A DNA stretch of 64,000 nt, from NCBI GenBank assembly GCA_001029775.1, contig CP011215.1, positions 426,303 to 490,302 on the forward strand. Reading direction: 5' to 3'. The notes beneath the pieces are model-generated. The model saw only the letters and a list, made by a program, of their open reading frames with translations, did no database searches and had not been told where the DNA came from. The DNA comes from Candidatus Campbellbacteria bacterium GW2011_OD1_34_28. GTDB lineage: Bacteria; Patescibacteriota; Minisyncoccia; Phycocordibacterales; UBA12079. The first letter of the stretch is position 1. Each line of letters starts with the position of its first letter. The position numbers were made by a program, and so were the translations under genes. Shown here piece after piece: positions 1,571 to 53,992 of this stretch.

Positions 1571-3262
1571 ATGTCAAACAATGTTGAAAAAATTAAAGAT
1601 CGTTTGAATATTGTTGACGTTGTTGGTAGTTATTTAAAGTTGGAAAGGGCGGGAGCAAATTTGAAAGCTCCTTGTCCGTTCCACAATGAAAAAACACCGT
1701 CGTTCTTTGTTTCTCCAGATAGAGGAACATACAAATGTTTTGGTTGTGGAGAAGGCGGAGACATCTTTAGCTTTGTAGAAAAATTTGAGGGAGTAGATTT
1801 TCCTCAAGCAATGAGAATACTGGCAGATAAAGCTGGAGTTGTTCTAGAAAAAGAAGATCCAAAATTAAAAAGTGACAGAGACCGACTGTACAAGGTAATG
1901 GAAGAAGCAACACTTTTTTTTGGGGAAAATTTAAAATCACACAAAGGACCGAGAGATTATCTAGAAAAGAGAGGATTAACACAAGAAACGGTTGATAAAT
2001 TCAGAATCGGTTTTGTAAAAGACGAGTGGAGAAATTTGTATGATTTTTTGAAAACAAAAAATTACAGTGATGAAGAAATTGAGAAAGTTGGACTGATTAA
2101 AAAAACAGATAGCGGTTTTTATGACAGGTTTAGAAATAGAATAATTTTTCCAATTTTTGATAGTTCGGATAGGGTAGTAGCCTTTTCAGGAAGACTCTAC
2201 GAAGATGATGGAAAATCGGCAAAGTATTTAAATAGTCCTGAAACAGTTCTTTTTAATAAATCAAAAATATTGTATGGATACAATTTTGCCAAAAAAGATA
2301 TTCGCGTACGAGGATTTTCAATTTTGGTTGAAGGTCAAATGGACCTTGTGATGTCGCATCAAGCAGGTTTCAGTAATACTGTTGCTACATCGGGAACAGC
2401 CCTAACAGGCGAGCATTTGTCTCTTTTGAAAAGATTGTCAGACAAATTGGTTCTGGCATTTGACGGTGACGAGGCTGGTTTGTCCGCTGCCAACAAAGGA
2501 GCAAAGCTTGCTTTGGGATTAGGAATGGAAGTCAAGCTTGTGGAAATATCGGATAACTTGGATCCTGCAGATGTTATACTGAAAGACAAAAGTGTTTGGA
2601 GCAAGTCTTTGCAGAATACGGTACATATAATAGATTTCAATTTAAATTCTTTATTAAAAAAAGGTTTTGATAAAAGAAGATTGGGATTGGAAATAAAAAG
2701 CAAAGTGCTTTTGTTGGTAAATGAATTGAAAAGTAATATTGAACAAGATTATTTTATAAATTCAATTTCTGGTTCGTCAGGAATCCCGCAAGACATTCTT
2801 TGGAAAGATTTAAAAAATATTGATAGTGGTGAAACGGCAAGAGAGTCCAAAGAAATTATTTATGATGAGAAAAAAACTACCGCAACAGCTAGAAAAGAAA
2901 CACTTCGTGAAATATCAGGAATCCTACATTGGCAAAAAGGTTTGAGTGAACCTATGATAAATATTCAAAAATGGGAAGAAAAATTGTTGGATGTTGTCGG
3001 GGAAGAGCTGTTCAACAAGATTCAAAATTTATCAGAAAATGTAAAGAATGAAATTGTTTTTGAGGCAGAAAATAAACATATAGATGAAAATAATTTAAAA
3101 AATAGAATGGAAGGAGCGTTTGAAAAATTGGAGAAAGATATTTTGTTGGATAGAAGAAAGCAAATTCAAGAAGAAATTTCAAAAGAAACAGACGAAAACG
3201 AGAAAATAAAATTGTTCAATGAGATGCTTGAATTATCAAAAAAAATAGATTCAAAAAAATAA
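1571..3262 (+). CDS. dnaG: DNA primase DnaG (CHC2 zinc finger [13 protein letters not shown]...CFGCG, TOPRIM core)
   Basis: N-terminal CHC2 zinc-binding motif and TOPRIM signature ([20 protein letters not shown]); lies 5 bp upstream of rpoD as in the classic macromolecular-synthesis operon. Confidence 0.92.
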
Positions 3263-4554: not shown

Positions 4555-4559
4555 AAAAA

Positions 4560-4586
4560 TAGAGCCTAACGGCTCTATTTTTTTAA
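4560..4586 (+). terminator. Rho-independent terminator after rpoD
   Basis: ATAGAGCC TAAC GGCTCTAT followed by TTTTTTT. Confidence 0.75.
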
Positions 4587-4721
4587 TAGTTTATGGTGAT
4601 AAGTAGTAAGTAATAAGGACGAAGCTATCAGCTATAAGCTTCAATTTCTTTATCAACACTTACGCACCCTTTTTTGTTTAAATTAGCCTTAATTATTGGT
4701 ATAATTTGAACAAAGATAAAT

Positions 4722-7700
4722 ATGCAAAGTGAGATATTTTTAAATGGCAAAAGGTATCTTTCAACAAAAAAAGCGACAAAAATCACAGAATTGGATGAAG
4801 AACATATTAAAGACCTATGCCGTGAAGAAAAGATAGATTTTACAAAGGTAGAAGGGGAATATTTTGTTGAATTAGAAAAACTTTTTGAATATAAAAACAA
4901 AACAAACAAGCCGATGATTTTGCCTATAAGAGCATTATCAACGGCTGTTTTGGCAATTCTCTTGATCGGAGCAGGTTACTTTTCAGGAGACATATTAAAC
5001 CAACTCAACAAAACAGGGGAGGCTGTTTTTTCTGCGGTAAAAAACACAAAAGAAATAACATACAAAGTTGGTGCAGAAAAAAGAGATTTGTTCAAAACAC
5101 AAATTCTTGATAGCAATGACAATTCTCCCATCAAAGAAATAAAAGACAGTAAAAATGTAAAAACAGTAGATACATACACACAAGACTTTTTAGATTATTT
5201 AGATGGATTAAAAAACAGAATTGTTTCCGTAACAGCTGATAGCTTACAGCTGATAGCTGATAGCACAAACGAAGATGAAGTTGAAAAAACAGTCGATAGT
5301 CGTCAGTCTATAGTCGATAGCACGGACGGCGTAAACATACTTGCAGGACAAGTAGATCACCTCACTTCGTTCGCGAAGACGGGTGTAAACAATTTAGCAT
5401 TGGTAGTCTACGAAACAGCAAGTCCTGTGGAACAGTTTGCAGTAGGTTGGTATAAGTTTGTTAATAATTTGTTTAGTAACGAAGCTGATAGCTTACAGCC
5501 AACAGCTGATAGCGTTGACGAAGCTGACAGCGGACAGCTAACAACCAACAGCGCGAACGAAGACGACTCGTCCGTCTTTGCGAGCGATAGCGAAGCGGAC
5601 AGAGATGAGATCTCGGAAAATGTTCCTTCAGTTCCCGCAACCCCAAAGACCACCACCATCGTTACAAACCCAATCAGAGAAATAATAAAAGAAACCGTTG
5701 TAGAAAGAGTAATCCAAACATCAGGCGTCACACTGGAAGATTTTCAAAAACTAAACAATGAATTAAGAAGTGAAATCTACAAATTATCTTCTGCTACTAA
5801 TTCTCAAATCACCAATACATATCAAGTAATCTCTGCCACCAACAACATCGACAATCTGGGTAGTGTCACAATCACCGACTCAAACATCAGTTCCTCAAAT
5901 GTCTCAGGAACAGAACTAAGCTTTACCAACGGAACAATTCAAAACCTAACTGTCACAGGCACAGCTACCTCTACATACGGTGGCCCTATTTCTGCAACCA
6001 GTGGAACATACTCTGGCAATCTAACTGTCACAGGCAACACCACCCTAAACACTCTTACCGTATCAGGAGACACAATCTTTGACACAGACACTCTTTACAT
6101 CGATTCAATCAACAACCGTGTAGGCATCGGATCAACAACACCTTCAGATACTCTTTCAGTAAACGGAGCAACATACCTTGCACCAATATCAGCTCCATCA
6201 ATTACCACAGACAGACTTTACAATATCTCCAATGATTTATACTGGGGTGGTAATCTTTTAGCAGGTTCAGCCGTTGGTAATTGGACATCCAACGGAACAG
6301 ATGTTTGGAGAGCAAGTGGAAATGTTGGGATTGGGACGACTTCACCTAGTTACAAATTATCCGTTGATGGTTTTGTTGATGCAAGCGGAACAACCGGAGG
6401 TTACAAAATAGATGGTAACACTATTTTGCAGGCAAGCTCAACAAATTATACTACTTTAGTTGGCCAAGGTGCTGGAAGTTCTTTAACAAGTGCTATTAGA
6501 ACTACAGCTATTGGATATGGGGCTTTGGCTAGCACAACTTCTGGTAATAATAATACCGCGGTTGGATATAACGCATTAAATCTTAATTCGACAGGAATAC
6601 TTAACACTGCCATCGGCTCTTTAGCTTTGTCCGTTAATACTACAGGTGACAGAAATACAGCCACAGGTGCCTTGGCTTTGTATTCAAACACAACAGGTTC
6701 ATATAACACAGGAACCGGCGCTTATTCTCTTAATCTAAATACCACAGGAGCAAATAATTCCGCTCACGGACGATCAGCTATGTATTCAAATACAACAGGA
6801 ACATATAACACAGCAGATGGTATGCAGGCACTTTTTAGCAATACTACGGGAAATAATAATACTGCTAGCGGTTACAGCTCTGCTTACTCAAATTCTACAG
6901 GTGGAAGCAATGTGACTATTGGATACGGTGCCTCTTATCGCAACTCAACAGGAAGTTACAACACGGCGATTGGTCAGGACGCAGGTTTTGGTGTTGCGGG
7001 AAATTCTTATTCAAACAATTCATTTTTTGGATACCGATCTGGTTATGGAATAACAGTAGGAAGTAATAATTTATTATTGGGATATCAGGCTGGTGACAAC
7101 GTTACAACAGGATCAAATAATCTTGTAATTGGTTATGATATCGACGCCCCTTCAGCCACCGCTTCAAATCAACTAAATATAGGAAACTTAATTTACGGAA
7201 CAAATATAAACGGAACAGGGACAACTTTGTCGTCAGGAAACATCGGCATCGGCACCACTTCACCTTTTGCAAAACTTTCCGTCAAAGGAGCAGGAACAAC
7301 AACAGGCATAAACTTCCAAACAACCAATTCAGCTGACACTCCGTTGGTGACTGTTTTGGATAGTGGAAATGTGGGCATTGGGACAAGTAATCCATCGACA
7401 GATTTACATGTCGGCAATAGTAACATTAACAATAGTGTAGATTCTGTAATCCTTGTTTCTAGGTTGGTAGATAATAGTGGTGTTGGTTCTGGAGTTAATG
7501 GGCACGCTTTTTCTGATAGCTCGACGATAACCAGAAGTGGCTCTATAGGATATAATTCTTTTGATGGCAGGACAATCTTTTCAGGATCAAATGATTATAA
7601 TCATTACGCTGTTTTTCAAAACGGAACAACCTATAGTTCGTCTGGAACAATGGGAATTATGTACGGATTTGTTAATGTGCCAACGGTTACAGCAGGAACA

Positions 7701-10700
7701 GTAACCAGTATGTATGGTGTTTATACCGCTGATCCAGTAGGAGCAGGCACAGTAACTAATAATTATGGTTTGTTTGTCCCTCAATTAAGCAAAGGAGCAA
7801 CAAAAAATTATGCTATATATACAGCAGGGACCACACGATCTTATTTTGGTGGAATAATAAATAATAGTGCAGGAATCTTGATAGCACCAAACGATGCTAC
7901 AACAAATCCAGCAAAATTATTTGAAATTCAAACAACATCTGGGACAGAAGCGTCTTTAAGAATAAGACAGCTTTCACAAAATTATTGGGATCTTAAATCT
8001 CCAGCAGGGTCAACTCGTTTTGACATATCAGATGTTTCTGGCACATATTTTTCTATATTGAATGGGGGAAACACCGGTTTGGGAATAACAACACCAACAG
8101 GAAAGTTAGAGATTGCTCAAGCTGGGTCAGATACTATAGCAAGTAGAAACCATTTAATATTCGGAGGATCGGAGGGTACGGATTATTTTGGCATGGGTTT
8201 AGATGCTACTGGTGATTTGATGATTGATAATTTAAATGGAACCGATACTAATGTAATGTCGTTATTGAGTTCTGGCAACGTCGGGATTGGGACGGTTAGT
8301 CCGGGGGCGAAGTTGGATGTTGCAACTGCAATAAATACTGGCAGTTTAACATTAGGAGTTGTCCCCTATACCGGTACTGACAGATATGTTGTTTTGAATA
8401 GTAATGGAATTGCTCTAAAGAACAGTATTACATATGGATGGGGGTCTGGATCAACAGATGCTGGAGGAACAAAGGATACTCAATTTTCACGTCTTTCAGC
8501 TGGAAAGATAAGTGTTGATACTGGCACAGTTGGCAATTCTTTAGGTACTCTTATCGCTGGCAACGTCGGCATCGGAACGACGAGTCCGGCTGCGGCTTTG
8601 GAAGTTCAGGGTAATGTTATCTTTAACGACCGCCTGACAATGAATGGTGATTCGGTTGGTTTATCTGCTAATAACTCAAACTACAATACTATTAAAAGTT
8701 TGTTCAGACCTACTTCAAATGGATTAAATTTAACAGGGGCTTTGGTAGATGCAAATTTTGATAACAACTCAGCAAACCTTACAAATGCCTATGGGTTAAG
8801 GATAACAAACGCCATTTCAGGAACTTATACAACAACAAACGCATATGGGCTTTATGTTGAGCAGCCGACAGGGGCAACGAATAATTATGGGGCATATATA
8901 AACGGCAATGTCGGCATTGGTACCACAACACCTTTCAGAAAGTTGAGTGTAGAAGGTAGTGTGTGGATCAGTGGTGATTTAACCGCTAACTCAATTACTG
9001 CCACAAGTTCAATTTCTGCTCCTTACTTTACAGCGACAGACACCACAGCAACTTCTACTTTTGCTGGTGGTTTAACCGTGGGAACAAATAAATTGGTGGT
9101 GGATAGGAGTACGGGAAATGTCGGCATCGGGACGACAGCATCGGACAGGGCGTTACATATTTCTACTAACTCTACAAACTATCAATTAAGACTTGAACGA
9201 ACTGGGACAACAGCTGGTGCTTCTACCTTATATGCAAACTCATCTTTTGCGCTTGGAATTACGGCAGGTAGCGGAACTGGTACAGGAGTATTTACTCTTG
9301 GACAAACGGGCGGTCTTTCTTTGGGAACATATTATGGAACAAACCCCGGAGCGGGAAGCCTAATACTTCCCGGCAACGTCGGGATTGGAACAACCACACC
9401 ATTTAGAAAGTTGAGTGTAGAAGGTGGTGCGTGGATATCTGGTGATTTAACCGTATCAAATATAACAGCCACATCATCTGTCTATTTATCAAACACCACA
9501 TATGCCGACCAGTCAGGTATTATCTACAAAGGAGCCAATTCTTTTATCCACAATTTCAATTATGGGAACAATGGAACAGTGACGACATTGGGACAAAATA
9601 CTTTTGTCGGAGAATTGGCCGGAAACTTTACAATGGGAAGCACGGCAACAGAGACTTACCATGCAAGTAGAAATACAGCAATAGGTTATCAATCCTTACT
9701 CGCCAACACAACAGGATATTATAACACTGCTAATGGTTATCAAACTTTGCGATTAAACACCACAGGAGGCTACAATACCGCTAATGGTTTGCAATCTTTA
9801 TATTCCAACACCACGGGCAATTACAATACTACTAATGGTGCAAATTCTCTCTATCTTAACACCACAGGCTCTTCTAATGTTGCCGACGGCCATTCTGCTG
9901 GTACTTACATCACCGACGGCGTAACAGCCAACACCACGGGAGACTACAATATCTTTATCGGACGAGACACTAAAGCCCTTGCCGACAACGACCAAAATGA
10001 AATCGTTATCGGCTACAACGCCACAGGGGTAGGAAGCAACTCGGTTGTTTTGGGGAATGATAGTATCACAAAAACGATTTTGAAGGGGAATGTCGGCATC
10101 GGCACCACCTCACCTTTTGCAAAACTTTCAGTAACAGGAGCTGGAACAGGCACTGGCTTGGCTTTTCAAGTTGCAAACTCTGCCAATTCTCCAAAATTTA
10201 CTGTTTTGGATAGTGGAAATGTGGGCATTGGGACGATGGGTCCGGAAGGATTATTGCATATCCATTCTACTAGCGCAGGGGATGTTGTTGCACACGCTTC
10301 TTATAATGATTTTGTGATTGAGGGAGGATCAACTGTAGGTATGAATATTCTTTCCGCGGACGTGGGCCTTTCAGGTCTTGGATTTGGCACGCCGTCAGAT
10401 AATTTAGGTAGCTATCTTCAGTGGGATTTTACGAATAATTTAATGTCCGTTGGAACCGCAAGAACAGGCGGAAATCTTAGATTAGTTACTGGAAATAATG
10501 TGGAGCAGATACGAATACAATCAAACGGCAACGTCGGCATCGGAACAACCACACCTTCCGCAAATTTGGATATTTACTCTAACGTAGACTCTAATTCTCG
10601 ACTGAACATTGATTTGGGGGCTGCTTCTTCGAACATTGGTATTAATCTTATATCGTCATCTATCTCCAGCGGTTCATATTGGATAAAAACAACAGGAAAC

Positions 10701-13700
10701 GATAATGAAGATAGTTTTGTTGTTAGAGGAGATGGGGCTGTCGGAATCGGAACAACAACTCCTTCTGCAAAACTCGATATCTATCAAGGTAATTTGAATT
10801 TGGACAACACCACTTTCGCCAACCAATTTGGAGTGATTTCCAAGGGCGGAACAAGGTTTATCCATAATTTCAACTACGGAAACAACGGAACGGTGACGAC
10901 AGTAGGATACAATACTTTCATTGGAGAAAACGCGGGAAACTTGACGATGGGAAGTACGGCGACTTCGGCTAGTCATGCAAGCTACAATACAGGAGTGGGC
11001 TATCAGTCCTTGCAGGCAAACACCACAGGCTATTTCAACACCGCTATTGGTAATCAATCTTTATTATTAAATACCACAGGTTATCACAACACCGCTATTG
11101 GTAATCAATCTTTGCGTGGTAATACCACAGGTAGTTCTAATACCGCTAATGGTTATCAGTCTTTATATTCCAATACAACAGGAGGATTTAATGCTGCCAT
11201 TGGTTATCAATCTTTACGTTCCAACACAACAGGTGGCTATAATATCGCTTTTGGTTATAACGCTGGTCGCTATATTACAGACGGCGTAACAGAAAACACC
11301 ACAGGAGACTACAATATCTTTATCGGACAAGATACCAAAGCCCTTGCCGACGACGACCAAAACGAAATCGTCATCGGCTACAATGCCACAGGGGTAGGAA
11401 GCAACTCGGTTGTTTTGGGTGCCGATACAATCACAAAAACAATTTTGAAGGGGAATGTTGGCATCGGCACCACCTCACCTTTTGCAAAATTATCAGTAAC
11501 AGGAACCGGAACAGGAACTGGCTTGGCTTTTCAAGTTGCCGATTCTGCCAACTCACCAAAATTCACTGTTTTGGATAATGGAAATGTCGGCATTGGGACG
11601 ACGGCGCCAAGCCAGATTTTACATACTTTCAGAAATGATTCAAATACTACAAATAGTATTGAAATTGAGCAAGATGGCTCGGGAGATTCTTCATTAAGAT
11701 TTTTATTAACAGGAGTTACTGGATGGACAATGGGTGTAGATAATTCTGATTCAGATAAATTTAAGATAGGAAATGCACAGTCATTTTCTACAAGTTTTTT
11801 AAACATAGATGGCGCTGGCAACGTCGGTATAGGAACGGCAAATCCAGGGGCGGAACTTGAGATACAAGCAGACGCAAATACAGGCGGAGCTCCTCAATAT
11901 TCACAATTTTGGATTTCTGGAAAGACAGTTAATACAAAACGATTTTATATTGGTATGGATACGAGCACAAATAAAGGTATTCTTTCCGCAGAAACTGGTG
12001 CTGGGGTTTATGCACCTATTGTTATAAATCCATATGGTGGCAATGTTGGCATCGGCACCACAACACCAGGGGCGAAGTTAGATATTAATGGAAATATGAG
12101 AACCTCCATTGGTTCAGGTGGATTTTTGACATTACATGAGACTGATGCTACAAGACAAAATCAGTTGAGTCTGGGAGCTGACGCAAGCGGTGCGTATTTA
12201 GCTTCAACTTATGCGACTGGAGGAGTTGCAGATATTCGTTTTAGTTTAGCAGGTACAGAAAGGGTGCGCATTCAACAGGGTGGTAACGTCGGCATCGGCA
12301 CCACCTCACCTTTTGCAAAATTATCCGTCAAAGGAGCAGGAACAACCACAGGTGTAAACTTCCAAACAACCAATTCGGCTGACACTCCGTTGGTGACTGT
12401 TTTGGATAGTGGGAAGGTGGGTATTGGGACGACGAATCCTGGTACATTATTACAATTAAATATTGATGGTATAGCTAATACACCAAAGGAAGTATTAAGA
12501 GTGTTTAATGGGCTTGCTTATGGTGTTGGTAATGGTTATGGTGAGGCCCAAATAGGCATCGGACACGCTGTATCGGGTGGATATGTCGGTGGTGGAGCTA
12601 CTTCTGAAACTTCAAGTACTAATGGATATCTATCTTTAGGAAATAGGGTATCTAATGTAATGACAGAAGTAGTTAGAATTACTGATGGCAACGTCGGCAT
12701 CGGGACGACGAGTCCGGGAGCAAAGTTAGTTGTAGTGGGAAATGGTACCGCAAGCGTGGCTATAGGGGGTGGAGCATATACAGACTATTCATCTATATCC
12801 TTGAATGGGAGCCTTGCTTCTGGTCAATACAATCTTTTAAGTGGTTATGCTGACAAGACGCTCTATATTAATCGTCCAGCCGGTGCAGATATTTTATTTA
12901 GGGAAAATAATGGTACTGCACAGATGGTCATAAAACAGACAACCGGCAATATCGGCATCGGCACCACATCACCTTTTGCAAAACTATCCATCAAAGGAGC
13001 AGGAACAACCACAGGTGTAAACTTCCAAACAACCAATTCGGCTGATACTCCGCTGGTGACTGTTTTGGATAGTGGGAATGTCGGTATTGGGACGGTGAGT
13101 CCAGGGGCAATGTTGACTATTGTAGGCACTCCTGCTGGAGGTTCCACGAATGTTGGGTTAAATATATATGACAACACGGGGAATGGTGTCGGAATATGGA
13201 CATCAAACGCAGTTGGAAAAATTGGAACACCGAATGCTGTTGATGTTGCATTTATGGCAAACAATAGTGAGAAAATGAGGATATTACAATCGAACGGCAA
13301 CGTCGGCATCGGGACGACGAGTCCAGGAAGTTTGTTGCATTTATATCAAAATACAGTAGGAGTTGGGACTGGTAATGGATTAATGATTGAACAGGATGGA
13401 GCAGGCGACGCTTTAATGCAGTTTTTATTAACGGGGACAGCTAGATGGCAAATGGGCGTTGATAATAGCGATTCTAGAACATTCAAAATTGGAGTTGGTA
13501 GCGATTGGGCAACAAATATTGGCTTGGCAATTACAACTACAGGCAACGTCGGCATCGGCTCAACCGCTCCAAACTACAAACTAACCGTAAACGGAACAGT
13601 AGCTTTCCAAAGTCTTGCTAACAACGGCACTGGCTATTATGTCTGTGCCAACGCTGGAACAGGAGAACTAGCCACATCAACAACAGCCTGCGGAGCATCA

Positions 13701-14624
13701 TCAGAAAGATTTAAAACAAATATAAACGATCTAACATACGGTCTAGACACAGTCCTTCAACTACGCCCTGTATCTTTCAATTGGAAATCAGACTTTATCA
13801 ATTCTTCTTCAACTCAAATCGGATTCATCGCAGAAGAAGTAAACTCTCTTATACCAGAAGTAATCGGACACGATGACAAAGGTACTATCATGAACCTTGA
13901 TTATCCAAAGTTGACTTCGGTTTTGGTAAATGCAGTTAAGGAACTTAATCTAAAAATAGAAAGTATTGCAAGTACAACAAGCCAGTTGATAGCCGACAGC
14001 TCACAACCAACATCTGTTATTGATTCTGTTCTTTCTCATTTAGAAAGTTTGGGTGCTAAGTTTGTTGATGGAATCGCTTATTTAAAAACAGTTTTCGTTG
14101 AAAATCTAACTATTGGTAGTGCGGACAAGCCGACTGGTATGACTTTGTACGACAAAGCAACAGGGGAGCCTTATTGTTTGGAAATTGTTAATGGAGCGAT
14201 GGTAAATACTTCTGGAATTTGTGATACAGCTAATAGCCAGCAGCCAACAGCTGACAGCACGAACTACACCGCACCAGTTATAACAATCACAGGCAACAAC
14301 CCAGCCGTAGTAGAAATAAACAGCAACTATATTGATCTAGGCGCTACAGCAGTAGATAACCAAGGAAACTCTCTAATCGTAGATATAATAGACGCAGATA
14401 CAGTAGACACAACAACAGCCGGAGAATACACAGTTACTTACACAGCATTTGATGGAACACTAACTTCAACAAGTACGAGAACAGTACTTGTTGAAGATCC
14501 GACCCCGTTAGAGACCACGACTGTCTCTGACAGTCTGCCTCTAACGGGGCAAGTAGCTGACAGTCAACAGACAGCGACAACAACAGAGCCGACAACAACG
14601 GAGACGATAGTCGATAGTTTATAG
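4722..14624 (+). CDS. Giant (3300 aa) membrane-anchored repetitive fibre protein: N-terminal cytoplasmic segment + single TM, ~24 GNVGIGTTSPxxKLSV modules, Hep_Hag-like NTAxGxxSL repeats, S74-type intramolecular chaperone domain (SERFKTNI...), C-terminal Ig-like domain
   Basis: Single uninterrupted ORF; TM helix ALSTAVLAILLIGAGYF near residue 75; periodic motif counted in translation; SERFK autoproteolysis motif at nt ~13690-13960; extended -10 TGGTATAAT at ~4699-4707 upstream. Confidence 0.85.
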   Translation: MQSEIFLNGKRYLSTKKATKITELDEEHIKDLCREEKIDFTKVEGEYFVELEKLFEYKNKTNKPMILPIRALSTAVLAILLIGAGYFSGDILNQLNKTGEAVFSAVKNTKEITYKVGAEKRDLFKTQILDSNDNSPIKEIKDSKNVKTVDTYTQDFLDYLDGLKNRIVSVTADSLQLIADSTNEDEVEKTVDSRQSIVDSTDGVNILAGQVDHLTSFAKTGVNNLALVVYETASPVEQFAVGWYKFVNNLFSNEADSLQPTADSVDEADSGQLTTNSANEDDSSVFASDSEADRDEISENVPSVPATPKTTTIVTNPIREIIKETVVERVIQTSGVTLEDFQKLNNELRSEIYKLSSATNSQITNTYQVISATNNIDNLGSVTITDSNISSSNVSGTELSFTNGTIQNLTVTGTATSTYGGPISATSGTYSGNLTVTGNTTLNTLTVSGDTIFDTDTLYIDSINNRVGIGSTTPSDTLSVNGATYLAPISAPSITTDRLYNISNDLYWGGNLLAGSAVGNWTSNGTDVWRASGNVGIGTTSPSYKLSVDGFVDASGTTGGYKIDGNTILQASSTNYTTLVGQGAGSSLTSAIRTTAIGYGALASTTSGNNNTAVGYNALNLNSTGILNTAIGSLALSVNTTGDRNTATGALALYSNTTGSYNTGTGAYSLNLNTTGANNSAHGRSAMYSNTTGTYNTADGMQALFSNTTGNNNTASGYSSAYSNSTGGSNVTIGYGASYRNSTGSYNTAIGQDAGFGVAGNSYSNNSFFGYRSGYGITVGSNNLLLGYQAGDNVTTGSNNLVIGYDIDAPSATASNQLNIGNLIYGTNINGTGTTLSSGNIGIGTTSPFAKLSVKGAGTTTGINFQTTNSADTPLVTVLDSGNVGIGTSNPSTDLHVGNSNINNSVDSVILVSRLVDNSGVGSGVNGHAFSDSSTITRSGSIGYNSFDGRTIFSGSNDYNHYAVFQNGTTYSSSGTMGIMYGFVNVPTVTAGTVTSMYGVYTADPVGAGTVTNNYGLFVPQLSKGATKNYAIYTAGTTRSYFGGIINNSAGILIAPNDATTNPAKLFEIQTTSGTEASLRIRQLSQNYWDLKSPAGSTRFDISDVSGTYFSILNGGNTGLGITTPTGKLEIAQAGSDTIASRNHLIFGGSEGTDYFGMGLDATGDLMIDNLNGTDTNVMSLLSSGNVGIGTVSPGAKLDVATAINTGSLTLGVVPYTGTDRYVVLNSNGIALKNSITYGWGSGSTDAGGTKDTQFSRLSAGKISVDTGTVGNSLGTLIAGNVGIGTTSPAAALEVQGNVIFNDRLTMNGDSVGLSANNSNYNTIKSLFRPTSNGLNLTGALVDANFDNNSANLTNAYGLRITNAISGTYTTTNAYGLYVEQPTGATNNYGAYINGNVGIGTTTPFRKLSVEGSVWISGDLTANSITATSSISAPYFTATDTTATSTFAGGLTVGTNKLVVDRSTGNVGIGTTASDRALHISTNSTNYQLRLERTGTTAGASTLYANSSFALGITAGSGTGTGVFTLGQTGGLSLGTYYGTNPGAGSLILPGNVGIGTTTPFRKLSVEGGAWISGDLTVSNITATSSVYLSNTTYADQSGIIYKGANSFIHNFNYGNNGTVTTLGQNTFVGELAGNFTMGSTATETYHASRNTAIGYQSLLANTTGYYNTANGYQTLRLNTTGGYNTANGLQSLYSNTTGNYNTTNGANSLYLNTTGSSNVADGHSAGTYITDGVTANTTGDYNIFIGRDTKALADNDQNEIVIGYNATGVGSNSVVLGNDSITKTILKGNVGIGTTSPFAKLSVTGAGTGTGLAFQVANSANSPKFTVLDSGNVGIGTMGPEGLLHIHSTSAGDVVAHASYNDFVIEGGSTVGMNILSADVGLSGLGFGTPSDNLGSYLQWDFTNNLMSVGTARTGGNLRLVTGNNVEQIRIQSNGNVGIGTTTPSANLDIYSNVDSNSRLNIDLGAASSNIGINLISSSISSGSYWIKTTGNDNEDSFVVRGDGAVGIGTTTPSAKLDIYQGNLNLDNTTFANQFGVISKGGTRFIHNFNYGNNGTVTTVGYNTFIGENAGNLTMGSTATSASHASYNTGVGYQSLQANTTGYFNTAIGNQSLLLNTTGYHNTAIGNQSLRGNTTGSSNTANGYQSLYSNTTGGFNAAIGYQSLRSNTTGGYNIAFGYNAGRYITDGVTENTTGDYNIFIGQDTKALADDDQNEIVIGYNATGVGSNSVVLGADTITKTILKGNVGIGTTSPFAKLSVTGTGTGTGLAFQVADSANSPKFTVLDNGNVGIGTTAPSQILHTFRNDSNTTNSIEIEQDGSGDSSLRFLLTGVTGWTMGVDNSDSDKFKIGNAQSFSTSFLNIDGAGNVGIGTANPGAELEIQADANTGGAPQYSQFWISGKTVNTKRFYIGMDTSTNKGILSAETGAGVYAPIVINPYGGNVGIGTTTPGAKLDINGNMRTSIGSGGFLTLHETDATRQNQLSLGADASGAYLASTYATGGVADIRFSLAGTERVRIQQGGNVGIGTTSPFAKLSVKGAGTTTGVNFQTTNSADTPLVTVLDSGKVGIGTTNPGTLLQLNIDGIANTPKEVLRVFNGLAYGVGNGYGEAQIGIGHAVSGGYVGGGATSETSSTNGYLSLGNRVSNVMTEVVRITDGNVGIGTTSPGAKLVVVGNGTASVAIGGGAYTDYSSISLNGSLASGQYNLLSGYADKTLYINRPAGADILFRENNGTAQMVIKQTTGNIGIGTTSPFAKLSIKGAGTTTGVNFQTTNSADTPLVTVLDSGNVGIGTVSPGAMLTIVGTPAGGSTNVGLNIYDNTGNGVGIWTSNAVGKIGTPNAVDVAFMANNSEKMRILQSNGNVGIGTTSPGSLLHLYQNTVGVGTGNGLMIEQDGAGDALMQFLLTGTARWQMGVDNSDSRTFKIGVGSDWATNIGLAITTTGNVGIGSTAPNYKLTVNGTVAFQSLANNGTGYYVCANAGTGELATSTTACGASSERFKTNINDLTYGLDTVLQLRPVSFNWKSDFINSSSTQIGFIAEEVNSLIPEVIGHDDKGTIMNLDYPKLTSVLVNAVKELNLKIESIASTTSQLIADSSQPTSVIDSVLSHLESLGAKFVDGIAYLKTVFVENLTIGSADKPTGMTLYDKATGEPYCLEIVNGAMVNTSGICDTANSQQPTADSTNYTAPVITITGNNPAVVEINSNYIDLGATAVDNQGNSLIVDIIDADTVDTTTAGEYTVTYTAFDGTLTSTSTRTVLVEDPTPLETTTVSDSLPLTGQVADSQQTATTTEPTTTETIVDSL
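7241..7384 (+). repeat. ~145 bp intragenic DNA repeat (copy 1 of 3; copies at 12291..12434 and 12951..13094) encoding GIGTTSPFAKLSVKGAGTTTG(I/V)NFQTTNSADTPLVTVLDSG
   Basis: Near-identical nucleotide stretches read directly in sequence. Confidence 0.8.
9500..10215 (+). repeat. ~700 bp intragenic duplication (second copy ~10820..11595) encoding FIHNFNYGNNGTVTT...Hep_Hag repeats...GNVGIGTTSPFAKLSVTG
   Basis: Long collinear nucleotide similarity between the two segments inside the giant gene. Confidence 0.75.
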
Positions 14625-14765
14625 TCAATAGTAACGAAGACAAATGAACGACGTGGATTCCTGCCTGCCGTGTCGTTGCTTTTCTTTCAGAAAAGAGGCA
14701 GGTTTGGATATAATTTGTATTACCTGTCTGTCGGCAGGCAGGTTCGGATTATCTTTATAAAGAAA

Positions 14766-14800
14766 ATAAAAAAAGCGGAGACGAGAGTCTCCACTTTTTG
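14766..14800. terminator. Bidirectional intrinsic terminator (GGAGAC GAGA GTCTCC flanked by A-run and T-run)
   Basis: Perfect 6-bp stem with A9 upstream and T5 downstream; sits 3' of the minus-strand small gene 14820..15030 and 140 nt 3' of the giant gene. Confidence 0.7.
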
Positions 14801-14819
14801 CTGCCCGATGTGGCAGATG

Positions 14820-15030
14820 TTATTTTTTGGCCTTTTCGTTCATCATGGCAATGAATCTGGTCAGATCGAAACGGCTACAGTCGAGCTTTTCGCCGTTCTC
14901 GGAATTCATGATGGTCAATCCGCCATCAGGATTTTCTGCGATGCCAAGACAACAGTCTTTGCTACCGCAGGCGAACTCAAACTTCTTTCCGCCGATTACT
15001 TCTTTTCGTGTTTTCATGTTTTCGGGCATA
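14820..15030 (-). CDS. Small (70 aa) cysteine-containing hypothetical protein in a GC-elevated cassette with strong SD (GGAGGTGTGTT-ATG) and TTGACA-N17-TATACT promoter
   Basis: ATG at 15030..15028 preceded by GGAGGTG at optimal spacing; promoter gggaTTGACAat...TTATACT at ~15063-15095 on minus strand; terminator downstream; the ORF track's TTG-extended version 14820..15071 is probably too long. Confidence 0.6.
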
Positions 15031-15127
15031 ACACACCTCCACTGGTTGAATTGGGCTGAAATGATGTACAAAACTTCCGCCAGTATAATACAACAAACAT
15101 AGAATTGTCAATCCCACTCACAAAAAA

Positions 15128-15173: not shown

Positions 15174-16571
15174 TTATCCGTTTTTAATGATAGTTATAAA
15201 TTTCTTTATAATATTATTATCTCTTGTTTTTTCGTTGATGCTTCCTGCGGGATTAACATTTACGATTATTGCCATATCTGTTCCTGCTTTTGCTCTATCA
15301 AAGCCGAGCATATATTCTATTCTTTCTCCGGGTCTGATCATTCCTTGAGTGTTTGAGTGATAAATATATATAGGATCGGTAGGGAGAACGATATTAAATG
15401 TCCATCCGTCAGCTGTCTTTGTTCCAATGTTTGAAATAATAAATCTAAACGCAACTTTGCTAGATGTATTTGGAGTAGATGAAGCCACAAATTTGTTTGT
15501 GTTCGGATCAATTATTCCTACTTCAATTATTTCTGCTGTTAAGTCTGCCTGACCATATGGGTTTGAAACACCAATTGTTGAACCACCGCTAATAGGAATT
15601 ATTTGAGTTGTTGTTTGTCCTGGATTAAGAATTGTTGTTGTGTTTCCTGTGTTTGTATTACTGTTTGTATTATTTGTGTTTGTTGTGTTGCCTGAGATAG
15701 TATCACTGTCAGAATTGTCTACTATTCCTGATATTGGATAGCTTGTTACAAAGTCAGCCTCTACTATATGTCTGTCTTCTTTTGCTCCCAATGTATTACA
15801 TGTTGAGATTGTAAGAGTTCTTTTTCCTGTATTAAATTTAACCACAGCGTCGCTATCTCTTTCTGTTCTTACAGAAGTTACCTTGTAAAGGTGTTCCTTG
15901 TTTTCAGAACGAACTTTAATAGTATCTCCGACTTCAAGTTTTTCAAGATTGTTCAATGCTTTATAGGCTTGATTTCTCACTACTTGATAGCTGGTGCTAT
16001 GTCCAAAAAGATAAATGTTGTCTTCTTGCCCCAAAAGTCCTGATTTTGGATATCTAACAACTCCGTATTTCAAAGCCTCATCTAGTGCTGACAAATCGGA
16101 TGAAGTAGGATTAAGCACAGCTGAATCAACATTTATTTTATCGATAACAATTCTAATAGGATTAGCTACTTCTTCTGTAACATCTACAATTCCTCCTTCA
16201 GGAATTCTTTTGCTATAGAAAAGTTCTGCTACAGCCGATAGGTTTTCTGAAATAAAGTTTGCACTGCTACTAATTACTGAACCAAAAAATGTTCCAACCT
16301 TTGATAGAGAAGGGAAGTAAGTAGGAAATTTTTCTGCTCCTTCTCCTGCAACTTCAGTTGTGTTTTTTACATTGTTTACAATCCTTGGTGCAGCAACAAC
16401 TAAAATAATTAACACGATCAATACTTTCAATGCAGTCTTAAAACCTTTTTTAGGCACTTTGAAAGAGACATCGTAGTTGTCATCTCGTCTTCTCAACTCA
16501 CCTTCGTAAGGCAAATTGTCAGGTGCTCCTGAATCGTTATCGTTTATTCTTTTGTTTAGTGGATTCATCAT
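15174..16571 (-). CDS. Sortase-family transpeptidase (class uncertain) with N-terminal TM anchor and C-terminal CARDB-like beta domain
   Basis: Catalytic triad context LFGHSTS (His), LTISTCNTLG (TLxTC Cys), downstream Arg; N-terminal hydrophobic helix ALKVLIVLIILVVAAP. Confidence 0.8.
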   Translation of the reverse strand: MMNPLNKRINDNDSGAPDNLPYEGELRRRDDNYDVSFKVPKKGFKTALKVLIVLIILVVAAPRIVNNVKNTTEVAGEGAEKFPTYFPSLSKVGTFFGSVISSSANFISENLSAVAELFYSKRIPEGGIVDVTEEVANPIRIVIDKINVDSAVLNPTSSDLSALDEALKYGVVRYPKSGLLGQEDNIYLFGHSTSYQVVRNQAYKALNNLEKLEVGDTIKVRSENKEHLYKVTSVRTERDSDAVVKFNTGKRTLTISTCNTLGAKEDRHIVEADFVTSYPISGIVDNSDSDTISGNTTNTNNTNSNTNTGNTTTILNPGQTTTQIIPISGGSTIGVSNPYGQADLTAEIIEVGIIDPNTNKFVASSTPNTSSKVAFRFIISNIGTKTADGWTFNIVLPTDPIYIYHSNTQGMIRPGERIEYMLGFDRAKAGTDMAIIVNVNPAGSINEKTRDNNIIKKFITIIKNG

Positions 16572-16732: not shown

Positions 16733-19024
16733 ATGACAAAGAATATAACAAAAAGCTTAATAATATTTCTGGCAATTTTTTCCGCGTTTTCTTTTGGTTT
16801 GATTCCAGTAGATATTCAAGCTGCTACTACTCAAATAAATTTTAATGATGAGATTATGTTTGCTCCGAACTGTTTTTGCGGAGCTGATGTAACAGCATAC
16901 AATCTTTACCCCTGTGAAGATCGTAATTGGTGTAACGGTGATACCTCAATAAAGACAGCCAATGTTTCTAATGGAAAATACAAAGTAAAAGTAAATATAG
17001 CTAAATTAACTGATGGACAAAGATTTGAATCGGTGATTTTTACATTTAATGGAGTAAATTATACTATTCCCGATCTTGGAGGAAATGCAGACTCGACTGG
17101 TACGGGGGTATATGAAGTTGGAACATTTAATTTGTCAGGACCAGTTAGTTTTAAAGGAACTCACAAATATGCCAATACTTTTACAGGTCTTTGGTACTCA
17201 GATCCTTATTCAAAAGTAGGTTCTGGTCACGCAATGGAAAGTGTTTCTATTGCCTCTGTTGTTCTTGAAGAAATTGTTACCCCACCTACTTGTACAATGA
17301 GTGCGGTTCCTTCAACAATAACTGCTGGAAATACATCAAATTTGAGATGGACTTCTACAAACGCAACTAGCGCTGTTATCAATCAAGGAATTGGAAATGT
17401 AGCCGTTAATGGAAATAGAAATGTTTCTCCATTCCAAACAACGACTTACACAGGAACATTTACGGGCCCTGGTGGAACAGTAAATTGTCAAACAACCGTG
17501 ACTGTTACAATACCCCAAATGCCTACTTGTACAATGACAGTTAATCCTGCAAATATTACAACTGGACAAAGTGCAACTTTGAGTTGGACTTCTGTAAACG
17601 CAACTAGCGCTGTTATCAATCAAGGAATTGGAAATGTAGCCGTTAATGGAAGCAGATCTGTTTCACCAACTCAAACAACAACTTATACGGGAACATTTAC
17701 TGGTGCTGGTGGAGTAGTAACTTGTCAAAAAACTTTGACTGTTAACAATGTTCCACCACCTCAATTGCCGACTTGTGCAATGAGTGCTGTTCCTCAAACA
17801 ATCTCTGTTGGAGACACATCAAATTTGAGATGGACATCTACAGGCGCAACCAGTGCTGTTATAAACCAAGGAATTGGCACAGTAGCAGTTGATGGAAATA
17901 GAAATGTTTCACCTACTCAAACCACAACATATACAGGAACCTTTACAGGTTCTGGAGGAAGCGTAGTTTGCCAGACAACAATTATTGTTACATCTACACA
18001 CCCTGCGCCAACTTGTACAATGACAGTTACACCAGACAGTATTGTTAACGGAGGAAATGCTACTCTAGCTTGGAATTCTACAAATGCTACATCTGCTTCT
18101 ATAAATCAAGGTATCGGAACTGTGGCTGTTGATGGAAGTCGTGTTGTTTCTCCAAATCAGACCACAACATATACAGGAACATTTACAGGTTCTGGAGGTG
18201 TTGTTACTTGTAGTGCTATGTTGACTGTTTCTGGAACAGGAGGTCCTTCTATAAATATAACAAAAAATGACAATGACAATGGTGATGATACTCAGGCCGT
18301 TGTGTCTGGGGGGACAGCAACCTTTACAGTCGTTGTGACAAATAATGGAACAAGAGATCTTATTGACGTTGTTGTAACAGATGCTTTGGCACCAAATTGT
18401 AACAGAACAGAAAGTCAAACAGCAGGTCTTTATCCGGGGTTAGTATTTGATCCAGGAGAAAGTTTTACTTATACATGTACTGACACAGATATTACATCAG
18501 CTTATACAAATACAATTAGAGTTGATGCTGATGAAATTGGAACATTTTCTATTGTTAATGACACAGATACCAGCAATGTTACCATAACTGGTTCAGGAAA
18601 TACTCCTACATGTTCTATGAGTTTTACACCAAGTAGCATAAATGTTGGAGACAGATCAACTCTTGCTTGGAATTCAACAAATGTTACTACGGCTGTTATT
18701 GATAACGGTGTAGGTAACGTCAATCCAAATGGTTCAACAGATATATTTAGAACATCGTCTGCAACATATACAGGAACATTTACAGGCCCAGGTGGAGTAG
18801 TGACTTGTCAGGCAAACATAACTGTTGGTGGTGGGGGAGGTGGAGGAACAAATACTCCGCGTATCACGCTATCTTCTGGTTCTGGAGTAACTGAACCCGG
18901 ATTCATTTATTTGAGCCAGATTCCTTATACAGGTATTCCTCAGTTCTTGATGACAATGATGGGATTTGTATTTAGATTCGCGTTCTTTGGAGGATTACTG
19001 TTTGCCTTATACAAAATTAAATAA
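16733..19024 (+). CDS. Secreted surface protein with six tandem Ig-like repeats (PTCTM...TYTGTFTG.GG.V.CQ) and C-terminal cell-wall sorting signal (IPYTG + hydrophobic segment + KIK)
   Basis: Signal peptide MTKNITKSLIIFLAIFSAFSF; repeats evident in translation; C-terminus LSQIPYTGIPQFLMTMMGFVFRFAFFGGLLFALYKIK has LPXTG-like architecture; TTGACA-N17-TAGTAT promoter at ~16699-16727. Confidence 0.8.
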   Translation: MTKNITKSLIIFLAIFSAFSFGLIPVDIQAATTQINFNDEIMFAPNCFCGADVTAYNLYPCEDRNWCNGDTSIKTANVSNGKYKVKVNIAKLTDGQRFESVIFTFNGVNYTIPDLGGNADSTGTGVYEVGTFNLSGPVSFKGTHKYANTFTGLWYSDPYSKVGSGHAMESVSIASVVLEEIVTPPTCTMSAVPSTITAGNTSNLRWTSTNATSAVINQGIGNVAVNGNRNVSPFQTTTYTGTFTGPGGTVNCQTTVTVTIPQMPTCTMTVNPANITTGQSATLSWTSVNATSAVINQGIGNVAVNGSRSVSPTQTTTYTGTFTGAGGVVTCQKTLTVNNVPPPQLPTCAMSAVPQTISVGDTSNLRWTSTGATSAVINQGIGTVAVDGNRNVSPTQTTTYTGTFTGSGGSVVCQTTIIVTSTHPAPTCTMTVTPDSIVNGGNATLAWNSTNATSASINQGIGTVAVDGSRVVSPNQTTTYTGTFTGSGGVVTCSAMLTVSGTGGPSINITKNDNDNGDDTQAVVSGGTATFTVVVTNNGTRDLIDVVVTDALAPNCNRTESQTAGLYPGLVFDPGESFTYTCTDTDITSAYTNTIRVDADEIGTFSIVNDTDTSNVTITGSGNTPTCSMSFTPSSINVGDRSTLAWNSTNVTTAVIDNGVGNVNPNGSTDIFRTSSATYTGTFTGPGGVVTCQANITVGGGGGGGTNTPRITLSSGSGVTEPGFIYLSQIPYTGIPQFLMTMMGFVFRFAFFGGLLFALYKIK
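17285..18240 (+). repeat. Four-five tandem ~240 bp coding repeats (Ig-like domains) inside surface protein gene; a further copy at ~18598..18840
   Basis: Repeated PTCTM(S/T)xxP...RWTSTNATSAVINQGIG...TTTYTGTFTG units. Confidence 0.75.
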
Positions 19025-52831: not shown

Positions 52832-53992
52832 ATGGCAAAGTCACTGGTAGGAATTCAGACATTGGAGTCTCTCGCTGGCTGGAAAATGATCGCCGAGAGG
52901 ACTAACGAGACCGAGGAGACTGTCCAGACCGGTCAGACCAAACCCGCAGAGTTCCGGATTTATCGGAACGATGACTTGGGGGTCGAGATTCATGTCCGGC
53001 GTTCGCTGGTCAAGGAAGGACTCGATTTCCTGCCTGGGATGGTAAAGGATGTCGAGACAGGAAAAGACCTGTGGAGTTTTTTTCAGGAGCAGTCCAAAGG
53101 ACTCGGACACCTGCTCGCCATTAACGGCGAGGTGGTCATCGGCCTGGAGGAGTGGGGCGATCTGAAGAAGGTCATCCCCGTCGCCGATCTGCGCAAGCAG
53201 AAGACCGTCGTCGTTGATGGCGTGTCCAAAATTGTCGGTGGTCGTGGCGTTCTCGCTACGGTCGATCTCAAACACTCGGTTGCCGAGGCGCTTTCTACCG
53301 ATCAGGGCAGGAGCATCAAGGCCAACATCACCGACGCCGAGCGCGCGGTGATGAGAAAACTTTCTGATGCCCGCAAGGCCAGTGAGGAGCGTGAGCGATT
53401 GGCACGGGAAACCGCGCGTCGCGAGCGGATCGCCAAGATCAAGAGCCGGCAACAGATTTCCGGCATGGTCGTGGAGAACGGCAGGGGTTCGCGTTGGGCG
53501 ATTCCTGTCACAGAAGACGAATGGATGTCTTTTGGGACCGACGACGGCATGGTTGCCATCGTTGCCGGTTTCGGTGAAGACGGCAAGCCCATCGTTCCCG
53601 AAGACGGAGTGGTGGAGGCATTTTTCATTCAGTATCGCAAGGGCGGTGGTGGACGGCCGGAGAAGAAGGCACAGGTGAAAATCCGTCTTCGTGGCTACGA
53701 ACAGGCCGAGCCCGTGAAGGAAGCATCCGTCTCCGCACCGACGCTCGTCAAACTGGAAACCGTCTTTATCGAGGTTTCCAAGGATCAGGCGAAATCCCTC
53801 GGCATCGATTCCGGATTTCAGGAAGTCAGTCTTACGGATGCAGAGGGGATTTCCACTCTGCGGAAGGCAGGTCTCAACAGCGGTGCGCTCGTCGCGATCT
53901 CCGCCACCGACGGATCCGATCGGATTCAGGTGGAGAAGTTCGTTGACGGCCAGACGCAGACCTTGGGCCTCTTTAATCCGATCACGATGTGA
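52832..53992 (+). CDS. Hypothetical protein (386 aa) in ~58% GC cassette with TTGACA promoter, AGGAGGTG SD and hairpin terminator; two globular halves joined by basic coiled-coil (ERERLARETARRERIAKIKSRQQ)
   Basis: SD 52817..52824; promoter gtaTTGACAaat...TAGTAT at ~52762..52795; terminator CCCGTCGTTGC...GCAACGACGGG T6 at 54013..54062. Confidence 0.7.
   Translation: MAKSLVGIQTLESLAGWKMIAERTNETEETVQTGQTKPAEFRIYRNDDLGVEIHVRRSLVKEGLDFLPGMVKDVETGKDLWSFFQEQSKGLGHLLAINGEVVIGLEEWGDLKKVIPVADLRKQKTVVVDGVSKIVGGRGVLATVDLKHSVAEALSTDQGRSIKANITDAERAVMRKLSDARKASEERERLARETARRERIAKIKSRQQISGMVVENGRGSRWAIPVTEDEWMSFGTDDGMVAIVAGFGEDGKPIVPEDGVVEAFFIQYRKGGGGRPEKKAQVKIRLRGYEQAEPVKEASVSAPTLVKLETVFIEVSKDQAKSLGIDSGFQEVSLTDAEGISTLRKAGLNSGALVAISATDGSDRIQVEKFVDGQTQTLGLFNPITM

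Follow-up and report, generated by a model that had tools for sequence, protein, structure and literature searches.

A chromosomally encoded 3300-aa S74 protein of Candidatus Campbellbacteria, a probable self-cleaving, membrane-anchored adhesive fibre composed of phage tail-fibre modules

The subject of this analysis is a 64,000-nt stretch (hereafter the window; contig CP011215.1 of assembly GCA_001029775.1, positions 426,303 to 490,302) of the genome of Candidatus Campbellbacteria bacterium GW2011_OD1_34_28, a tiny-celled groundwater bacterium of the Patescibacteria, or candidate phyla radiation (CPR), in which an uninterrupted open reading frame (ORF) of 3300 codons was identified at positions 4722-14624. 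The product of this gene is probably a trimeric, self-cleaving and membrane-anchored adhesive fibre of the Campbellbacteria cell. A first-pass annotation had already proposed a huge membrane-anchored surface fibre with a self-cleaving S74 chaperone, and this is still the reading best supported by sequence analysis, as the domains hold, the catalytic serine and lysine are conserved and solved S74 fibres were matched. To the observed domains, motifs, catalytic residues, homologies and genomic context of the ORF, the relationship with phage endosialidase and T5 fibres, with myelin regulatory factor (MyRF) and with the mosaic adhesive trimer (MAT) fibres of Bdellovibrio adds the basis on which trimerisation, cleavage, surface display and an adhesive role are proposed here. 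CPR bacteria are thought to live attached to other microbes, and how they recognize and hold their hosts is largely unknown.

Comparison of the whole protein with Pfam (E≤1) yielded no families other than Peptidase_S74 (PF13884) and Bact_surface_Ig-like (PF16403), both of which had been anticipated, the latter as an immunoglobulin-like (Ig-like) domain of the DUF5011 type. The S74 match scored 49.8 bits against a gathering cut-off of 22 (E 4e-13, model positions 1-56 of 58), while the excised segment scored 54.4 bits (E 1.6e-14). The catalytic residues, previously placed in the register S-[DE]-R-x-K, were found to begin one residue upstream, as S2993-S-E-R-F-K2998, which fits the family pattern S-D-x-x-x-K. 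A C-terminal family profile, constructed from this region and 64 relatives, matched the tail fibre 8jov (E 5e-21), the long tail fibre 6f45 (3e-16) and the ICA domain of MyRF (7dc3; 9e-15), as well as the MAT chains 8ond (4e-9), 8ojn, 8ol4 and 8oml and the phi29 appendage 3gud, both catalytic residues being aligned. In these alignments, SSERFK corresponds to ASDERLK of 8jov, to SSDRRIK of 6f45 and to the mutated site of MyRF 7dc3. Furthermore, the motif S-x4-K-x-[ND]-[IVL] was present in 84 retrieved relatives, and Ser and Lys were invariant in the trimmed alignment of the S74 core (A2). The predicted cleavage site is flanked by Cys2975 and Cys2990, and the exported part of the protein holds two Cys pairs.

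Structure prediction of aa 2940-3300 using AlphaFold2 gave a mean predicted local distance difference test (pLDDT) score of 75, with the S74 core exceeding 90, followed by helices, a beta module, the Ig-like domain (aa 3186-3258) and a disordered tail. Core, helices and Ig-like domain were modelled with confidence. When this C-terminal model was used as a Foldseek query, Ig matches dominated (the Ig domain of chitinase-60, BT2262 and Big_3), which bore out the Ig fold, and S74 structures were not listed, although the sequence profile does list these; phmmer likewise matched chitinase 60. The beta module, with the signature KPTG.TLYD...PYCLEI.NG, is shared by relatives P0014 and P0029, and other relatives carry KLCVDDxC at this location instead.

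The first-pass annotation described the ~300 residues that follow the chaperone as unusual. While ~307 residues do follow Ser2993, ~115 of these belong to the chaperone itself (core and helices, up to aa ~3109), so that the true add-on is ~190 aa. The extension is long in comparison with phages, as viral contigs (n=76) encode a median of 93 aa past the Ser, with only one reaching 180 or more, yet it is the rule among Patescibacteria, where 203-647 residues follow the catalytic Ser in 21 of the 22 loci with a closed ORF. In most Bacteroidota and Acidobacteriota loci, this segment spans 88-166 residues, and PF13884 and PF16403 occur together in at least 25 protein clusters. Judged from these sequences, Patescibacteria typically possess a long post-chaperone extension, of which the sampled phage contigs offer few examples. 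The short repeats of the QLIADS/PTADS type reported earlier are indeed present, both near the membrane (aa 176 and 260) and past the chaperone (aa 3088 and 3175).

Two side observations concern this region in relatives. Firstly, the patescibacterial proteins P0011, P0026 and P0029 contain tandem chaperone domains ahead of the Ig-like domain, their two S74 catalytic motifs being separated by ~135-145 aa. Secondly, the N-terminal ~110 aa of P0014, a fragment of an S74- and Ig-containing fibre, resemble the C-terminal part of an intein (…VWDIEVEGTHNFIGNNIFAHNT; PF14890 listed) and directly precede a cap motif of the kind described below, which suggests that some related fibre genes carry inteins.

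The prevalence of the extension bears on the main alternative, a possible though clearly less probable reading in which the C-terminal trimeric module (chaperone, beta module and Ig-like domain) would stay on the fibre tip, cleaved or not, with the Ig-like domain acting as a distal adhesin. Patescibacterial versions almost always carry 200-650 extra residues past the Ser, frequently including PF16403, and phage versions do not, which suggests that the extension has a selected function; moreover, in the AlphaFold2 model no folded domain lies further out than the Ig-like domain, and phage tail fibres with transient chaperone 'caps' are described (PMC10579305). Conversely, the extended versions retain the catalytic Ser and Lys without exception, and the dyad leads to cleavage in every S74 protein studied (PMC10769870).

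Upstream of the chaperone, the fibre body is punctuated by short glycine-rich motifs with the consensus xGNVGIGTTxPxAKLxVxG. The earlier count of approximately 24 such modules was borne out, with 24 exact matches to [NKRA][VI]GIG[TS] and one degenerate copy (GLGITTP, aa 1119), compared with ~0.02 matches expected by chance as estimated from the amino-acid composition of the protein. Their spacing, however, is not the proposed 100-150 aa, but varies between 43 and 306 aa around a median of 80 aa. The last motif, TGNVGIGSTAPNYKLTVNG, is located ~50 aa upstream of S74 and was aligned by the family profile with GRVGINTDRPDEALVVHG of MyRF and GNVGIGATAPTAKLEV of the MAT fibre Bd2133. As motifs of the GNVGIG type represent capping loops at the edges of triple beta-helices, common to MAT fibres and MyRF (Caulton et al. 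2024, PMC10769870), the 24-25 modules can, by this alignment, be identified as capping-loop motifs along the fibre.

The remainder of the body also resembles phage proteins. PHROG families of tail fibres, tail spikes and virion structural proteins matched it with E-values of 1e-32 to 1e-45, and tblastn matched 289 phage records, including tail fibres of Pelagibacter, Roseobacter, Synechococcus and Flavobacterium phages. In addition, phmmer matched aa 2907-2968 to the Bdellovibrio MAT fibre Bd2133 (PDB 8ond).

Three arrays of short repeats within the body had been interpreted as Hep_Hag-like heptad repeats. Their period was shown to be 17 aa, rather than a heptad or 14 aa, and no YadA_head or Hep_Hag profile match was obtained at E≤1 for the whole protein or at E≤5 for the excised arrays, while the same Pfam library scores genuine YadA_head and S74 fusion proteins at E 1e-22 to 1e-30. 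Comparison of the array segment with the PDB using phmmer returned spurious antibody matches only. Homologues of the array module alone number more than 2000, and PF26696 is listed for some of them. The best AlphaFold2 model of aa 1590-1805 (pLDDT 90; predicted template-modelling score 0.82) is a solenoid to which every 17 residues contribute one short strand, and the nearest solved folds are the YadA-like heads of BoaA, CbpF and YadA (3s6l, 9u93 and 1p9h), albeit weakly (TM-scores 0.33-0.48, E 0.1-0.4). Any likeness of the arrays to trimeric autotransporter heads would therefore appear to be at most structural.

Self-comparison with chunked queries further revealed an internal duplication, aa 1541-1850 being similar to aa 1993-2301 (57-81% protein identity), which shows that the gene has grown in part by tandem duplication of modules. 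The duplicated unit is a recent ~310-aa super-module consisting of an array and two caps (window positions 9342-10271 and 10698-11624).

The N-terminal region contains the predicted membrane anchor. Consistent with the single transmembrane (TM) helix and cytoplasmic N-terminus proposed earlier, aa ~65-87 represent the sole stretch among the 3300 aa with a 19-residue Kyte-Doolittle mean above 1.6, and the N-terminus is predicted to lie inside the cell because a Lys-rich segment (KNKTNKP) precedes this helix. The juxtamembrane stalk beyond it (aa 88-460) has no Pfam match and varies between strains through insertions and deletions. Among related strains, these were observed in the acidic S-L-Q-x-x-A-D-S linker at window positions ~5265-5640. 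The helix-turn-helix (HTH) and TM segments are ~97% conserved among related strains, the TM segment being retained in the strain variants L002-L004.

A feature that had not been noticed before is the domain preceding the TM helix. On its own, aa 6-62 match HTH_17 weakly, although across the whole model (E 0.004, 17.8 bits against a cut-off of 27). The same residues score 41 bits (E 4e-9) against a profile built from N-termini of related giants, which makes them a clear member of that family; among 20 of these N-termini, 15 match HTH_17 (best E 8.6e-14) and three match MerR. Their alignment with the start of a 2600-aa S74 giant from Saccharibacteria (L010) is free of gaps. In the set of 149 best relatives that were retrieved, an early signal or TM segment was present at the start of 61 and a late TM segment in 22; 19 of the latter begin with the same HTH domain, their TM segment then being located at residue ~80-215. 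HTH-TM N-termini thus account for 19 of the 83 top relatives with a detected N-terminal TM or signal segment. A homologue search with the N-terminal query gave a single partial match. These comparisons point to a probable HTH_17/MerR-type domain at the cytoplasmic N-terminus, one that recurs in many related giants, with putative DNA binding. In the Saccharibacteria locus (position 11163 onward, plus strand), the gene after the HTH-TM-S74 giant is a 1718-aa ORF whose product is weakly similar (E 8e-11) to the 763-aa Ig-repeat protein encoded downstream of the fibre gene in the window.

Taken together, these features are compatible with a type-II membrane protein, in which the ~60-aa HTH_17-type domain would reside inside the cell, the helix would act as an anchor and ~3200 residues would be exported. 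The exported part would represent a mosaic of phage tail-fibre modules, i.e. stretches bounded by the 25 caps together with three predicted beta-solenoid arrays of 17-aa repeats, and the C-terminal S74 intramolecular chaperone would set three chains in register, thereby templating folding into a trimer. The Ser2993/Lys2998 dyad would then cut the chain at Ser2993, just as the mature piece of the MAT fibre Bd3182 ends at its catalytic Ser (PMC10769870), and release a fragment of ~307 aa comprising the chaperone, a small disulfide-containing beta module, the Ig-like domain and the disordered tail. The mature fibre would remain anchored in the membrane, with a length roughly of the order of 0.2 µm, or about one cell diameter, when scaled at ~0.7 Å per residue from the ~550 Å model of Bd3182. 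Because of the analogy with MAT fibres and phage receptor-binding proteins, it would most likely mediate attachment to a host cell or surface.

Several points weigh against this proposal. Trimerisation and cleavage are predicted solely from homology, and only one of the five AlphaFold2 array models was confident, the other four having pLDDT values of 61-79. The Ig-like domain, which is the sole generic binding-type domain, is situated on the fragment predicted to be cut off, which is awkward for a picture in which the tip binds the target. Moreover, a purely adhesive model leaves the HTH domain without a role, and nothing in the window points to a host or ligand.

If these fibres are CPR attachment organelles, conservation of the cytoplasmic HTH domain would hint that the outer fibre is connected to the cell interior. 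An unlikely extension of the adhesive model is that the HTH-TM-fibre-S74 arrangement acts as a one-component transmembrane contact sensor, in which extracellular trimerisation, or tension or ligand binding on the fibre, would be relayed to the DNA-binding domain, as in regulators of the ToxR/CadC type, or in which a second, MyRF-like cleavage would give rise to signalling. If true, host attachment would be coupled to gene expression or nucleoid positioning in CPR episymbionts. MyRF resembles the Campbellbacteria fibre in combining a DNA-binding-type domain, a TM helix and an internal S74-type (ICA) domain preceded by a VGI(G/N)T..P...L motif. It differs in that both its DNA-binding and ICA domains are cytoplasmic and N-terminal to the TM helix, such that cleavage frees a transcription factor, whereas in the fibre the predicted locations are cytoplasmic for the HTH domain and extracellular for S74, ~2900 residues apart, and S74 cleavage consequently could not release the HTH domain.

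Of the known systems compared, the S74 subgroup of the Bdellovibrio bacteriovorus MAT fibres (e.g. Bd3182; PMC10769870) is the only experimentally studied cellular analogue that was found, and these fibres are used for prey recognition. They are likewise cellular, with a phage-like triple beta-helix and capping loops, a terminal S74 chaperone/protease with an S-x4-K dyad and variable modules that are shuffled between paralogues and relatives. MAT fibres are, however, ~1000 aa in length and are found on a Gram-negative predator rather than a CPR bacterium, and their N-terminus is described as a cleavable signal peptide with a conserved ~130-aa beta-rich domain, in contrast to the HTH domain, TM helix and acidic linker observed here. 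Unlike MAT fibres, the Campbellbacteria protein also possesses 17-aa solenoid arrays and ~190 residues (beta module and Ig-like domain) past the chaperone. From sequence comparison, the defining features of the S74 family that were tested are present, and the fibre body appears to be homologous to that of MAT fibres with a different anchor.

Resemblance to the trimeric autotransporter adhesins (YadA, BoaA and CbpF) is confined to the predicted beta-solenoid, with its weak fold match, and a similar NTAxG...NTTG wording, although genuine fusions of YadA_head and S74 do occur among distant relatives of the fibre. These adhesins have a 14-residue period, as opposed to 17 residues here, and anchoring in the present protein would be through the N-terminal TM helix. 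No Pfam family corresponding to the YadA-type C-terminal beta-barrel anchor was found in the whole protein at E≤1, the C-terminus consisting of S74, the Ig-like domain and the disordered tail, which argues against assignment to this class.

To assess how common such fibres are, relatives were sought by exhaustive HMMER searching of 1.84 billion cluster representatives with aa 2101-3300 as the query; homologue searches covered proteins of up to ~1.75 times the query length, and exhaustive HMMER and a genome scan were employed for full-length relatives. The exhaustive search yielded 135,959 matches when the threshold was E≤1e-3, and 6,608 when it was E≤1e-30. For the best 150 relatives, the median length is 2276 aa and the longest measures 7634 aa; thousands of relatives fall within 2000-7600 aa, and 31 of the 149 best relatives retrieved contain at least 24 cap motifs (maximum 58). 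As many relatives are longer and have more caps, size and repeat number are ordinary within the class, and the fibre is, by these searches, an ordinary representative of a very large class and not a unique case. The gene would thus belong to a very abundant family of cell-anchored fibres made of phage receptor-binding modules, in which the points of interest are at the family level, namely the HTH-TM anchor and the long post-chaperone extension typical of Patescibacteria, the single locus being unexceptional. If such fibres are CPR attachment organelles, their variable modules would predict host range and the self-cleavage site would offer easy biochemical access through S2993A. Within the searchable literature, no study connecting S74 domains with CPR bacteria was found, and literature queries on the VGIGT motif, on S74 or endosialidase with CPR and on giant CPR surface proteins returned nothing relevant.

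The neighbouring sortase gene and the gene for an Ig-repeat protein with an IPYTG sorting signal, to which the first-pass annotation had drawn attention, are both present downstream of the fibre gene. An LPLTGQ sequence is indeed located at aa 3272 of the fibre, is conserved as LPLTG in the close relatives P0001 and L006, and lies in a gene separated by 550 nt from that of the sortase, which is encoded on the opposite strand; it could in principle allow the sortase to wall-link the protein or its released C-terminal fragment. This is very unlikely, as LPLTGQ is followed by VADSQQTATTTEPTTTETIVDSL, i.e. 23 polar residues, with neither the hydrophobic segment nor the basic tail of a sorting signal, and SSLPLTG occurs twice inside a repeated Thr-rich linker of L006. 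Moreover, none of the 78 other S74 loci examined contains a sortase within 10 kb, and the 763-aa IPYTG protein is, from its sequence, the likely and obvious substrate of the adjacent sortase. The adjacency of the fibre and sortase genes is most likely coincidental, and the proposed link between LPLTGQ and the sortase was not upheld. The sortase, which matches NCBIfam sortase classes only below their cut-offs, has an unusual architecture, with an N-terminal TM segment, a ~135-aa catalytic domain, an Asn/Thr-rich linker and a C-terminal DUF11-like domain.

That the gene instead encodes a phage or prophage tail fibre embedded in the chromosome is highly improbable, even though all fibre modules have phage relatives, as seen in the PHROG families and the 289 phage records, in the at least 376 viral contigs that carry a related S74 core and in the NCBI name of relatives, 'tail fiber domain-containing protein'. 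Phage tail fibres and spikes (K1F endosialidase, the L-shaped fibre pb1 of T5 and gp12 of phi29; PF13884) share the S74 core, the catalytic residues and the preceding cap motif, and annotated phage tail fibres are 25-44% identical to fibre modules. However, phage versions are attached to the virion and lack a membrane anchor, whereas a cytoplasmic domain and a TM anchor are predicted here, and the viral versions sampled are much smaller (median 743 aa, largest complete ORF 2173 aa) with no more than ten caps and short segments past the Ser. Furthermore, the flanking genes are housekeeping genes, with the end of rpoC followed by dnaG and rpoD upstream and, beyond the sortase and Ig-repeat genes, thrS and miaA downstream. 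The remaining large ORFs scanned in the window also encode housekeeping functions (topA, an SMC-family ATPase, an RNase II-family (RNB) exoribonuclease, RNase J, dnaK and alaS). Genes for phage structure, packaging or integration were not found among the ORFs scanned, and neither Rfam nor tRNA scanning of the window returned a match. Proteins encoded by neighbouring genes match Campbellbacteria records exactly. Gene order is conserved across strains, two further strains retaining the same N-terminus. The fibre gene is therefore a real, cellular and chromosomal gene and not part of a prophage.

An assembly artefact arising from repeat expansion or collapse, which the highly repetitive nature of the protein might bring to mind, is the least probable explanation of all, because the intragenic DNA repeats have diverged (60-89% identity; the longest, 300 nt, at 71%) and an independent metagenome assembly (L001), 99.8% identical to the window across 14.5 kb, gives the same start and the same 3300-aa length, with relatives of 2000-7600 aa being numerous in other assemblies. 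Near-identical assemblies were reached through the neighbouring rpoD, an exact query with the 3300-aa protein itself having given no match.

Table 1. Features of the fibre gene and its neighbours, in window positions
Feature	Position (nt)	Strand	Details
Whole fibre gene	4722..14624	+	3300 aa and stop; ORF list and translation
Cytoplasmic HTH_17/MerR-type domain (predicted)	4737..4907	+	aa 6-62
Single transmembrane helix / signal anchor (predicted)	4914..4982	+	aa 65-87
Juxtamembrane stalk with acidic S-L-Q-x-x-A-D-S short repeats	4983..6101	+	aa 88-460; DNA repeat family D6
Fibre body, 25 cap motifs delimiting beta-rich modules	6102..13697	+	aa 461-2992; repeat families D1, D2, D4, D5, D7
Array 1, 8 units of 17-aa NTAxGxxALxxNTTGxx	6552..6959	+	aa 611-746; autocorrelation peak at lag 17; DNA family D3, 51-nt spacing
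Array 2, 4 clean 17-aa units	9672..9875	+	aa 1651-1718; unit list
Array 3, 5 clean 17-aa units	10986..11240	+	aa 2089-2173; unit list and self-comparison
Last cap motif TGNVGIGSTAPNYKLTVNG	13539..13595	+	aa 2940-2958; just before the cleavage site
Peptidase_S74 core	13698..13862	+	aa 2993-3047; Ser2993 codon 13698-13700, Lys2998 codon 13713-13715
Chaperone helices	13902..14048	+	aa 3061-3093 and 3098-3109; AlphaFold2 secondary structure; aligns with the helical tail of solved S74 chains
Small beta module with Cys pair (KPTGMTLYD...PYCLEIVNG...GIC)	14055..14213	+	aa 3112-3164; AlphaFold2 strands, pLDDT ~77-84
Ig-like domain PF16403 (former DUF5011)	14280..14492	+	aa 3187-3257; Pfam E 2e-11 / 1.9e-13
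Thr/Glu-rich disordered tail	14493..14621	+	LPLTGQ at nt 14535-14552; pLDDT <50
Neighbouring sortase with C-terminal DUF11-like domain	15174..16571	-	Pfam Sortase E 1e-20; probably not part of the fibre system
Neighbouring 763-aa Ig-repeat protein	16733..19024	+	Signal peptide, IPYTG, TM segment and KIK; corresponds to AKM84137

A number of minor observations were made at and around this locus. The fibre gene has a G+C content of 0.40-0.43, compared with 0.33-0.36 for its flanks, which is probably due to its Gly/Thr/Ala/Ser-rich composition (T 13.5%, G 12.9%) and not to recent transfer. Strains L002 and L003 carry ~300 nt of additional DNA between rpoD and the fibre gene (positions 11288-11762, equivalent to the intergenic window positions 4555-4721), their similarity to the window breaking between positions 4557 and 4646. 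The 550 nt that separate the convergent genes for fibre and sortase contain a GTG-initiated ORF of 129 aa (14670-15059, plus strand), which has no match in Pfam or NCBIfam and is probably not a gene. Finally, a 386-aa ORF at 52832-53992 (plus strand), which is overlapped by a 203-aa antisense ORF, exhibits a G+C content of 0.49, compared with ~0.33 elsewhere in the genome; it has no Pfam match, and no RNA was detected there by Rfam, and it may represent foreign DNA or a lineage-specific gene.

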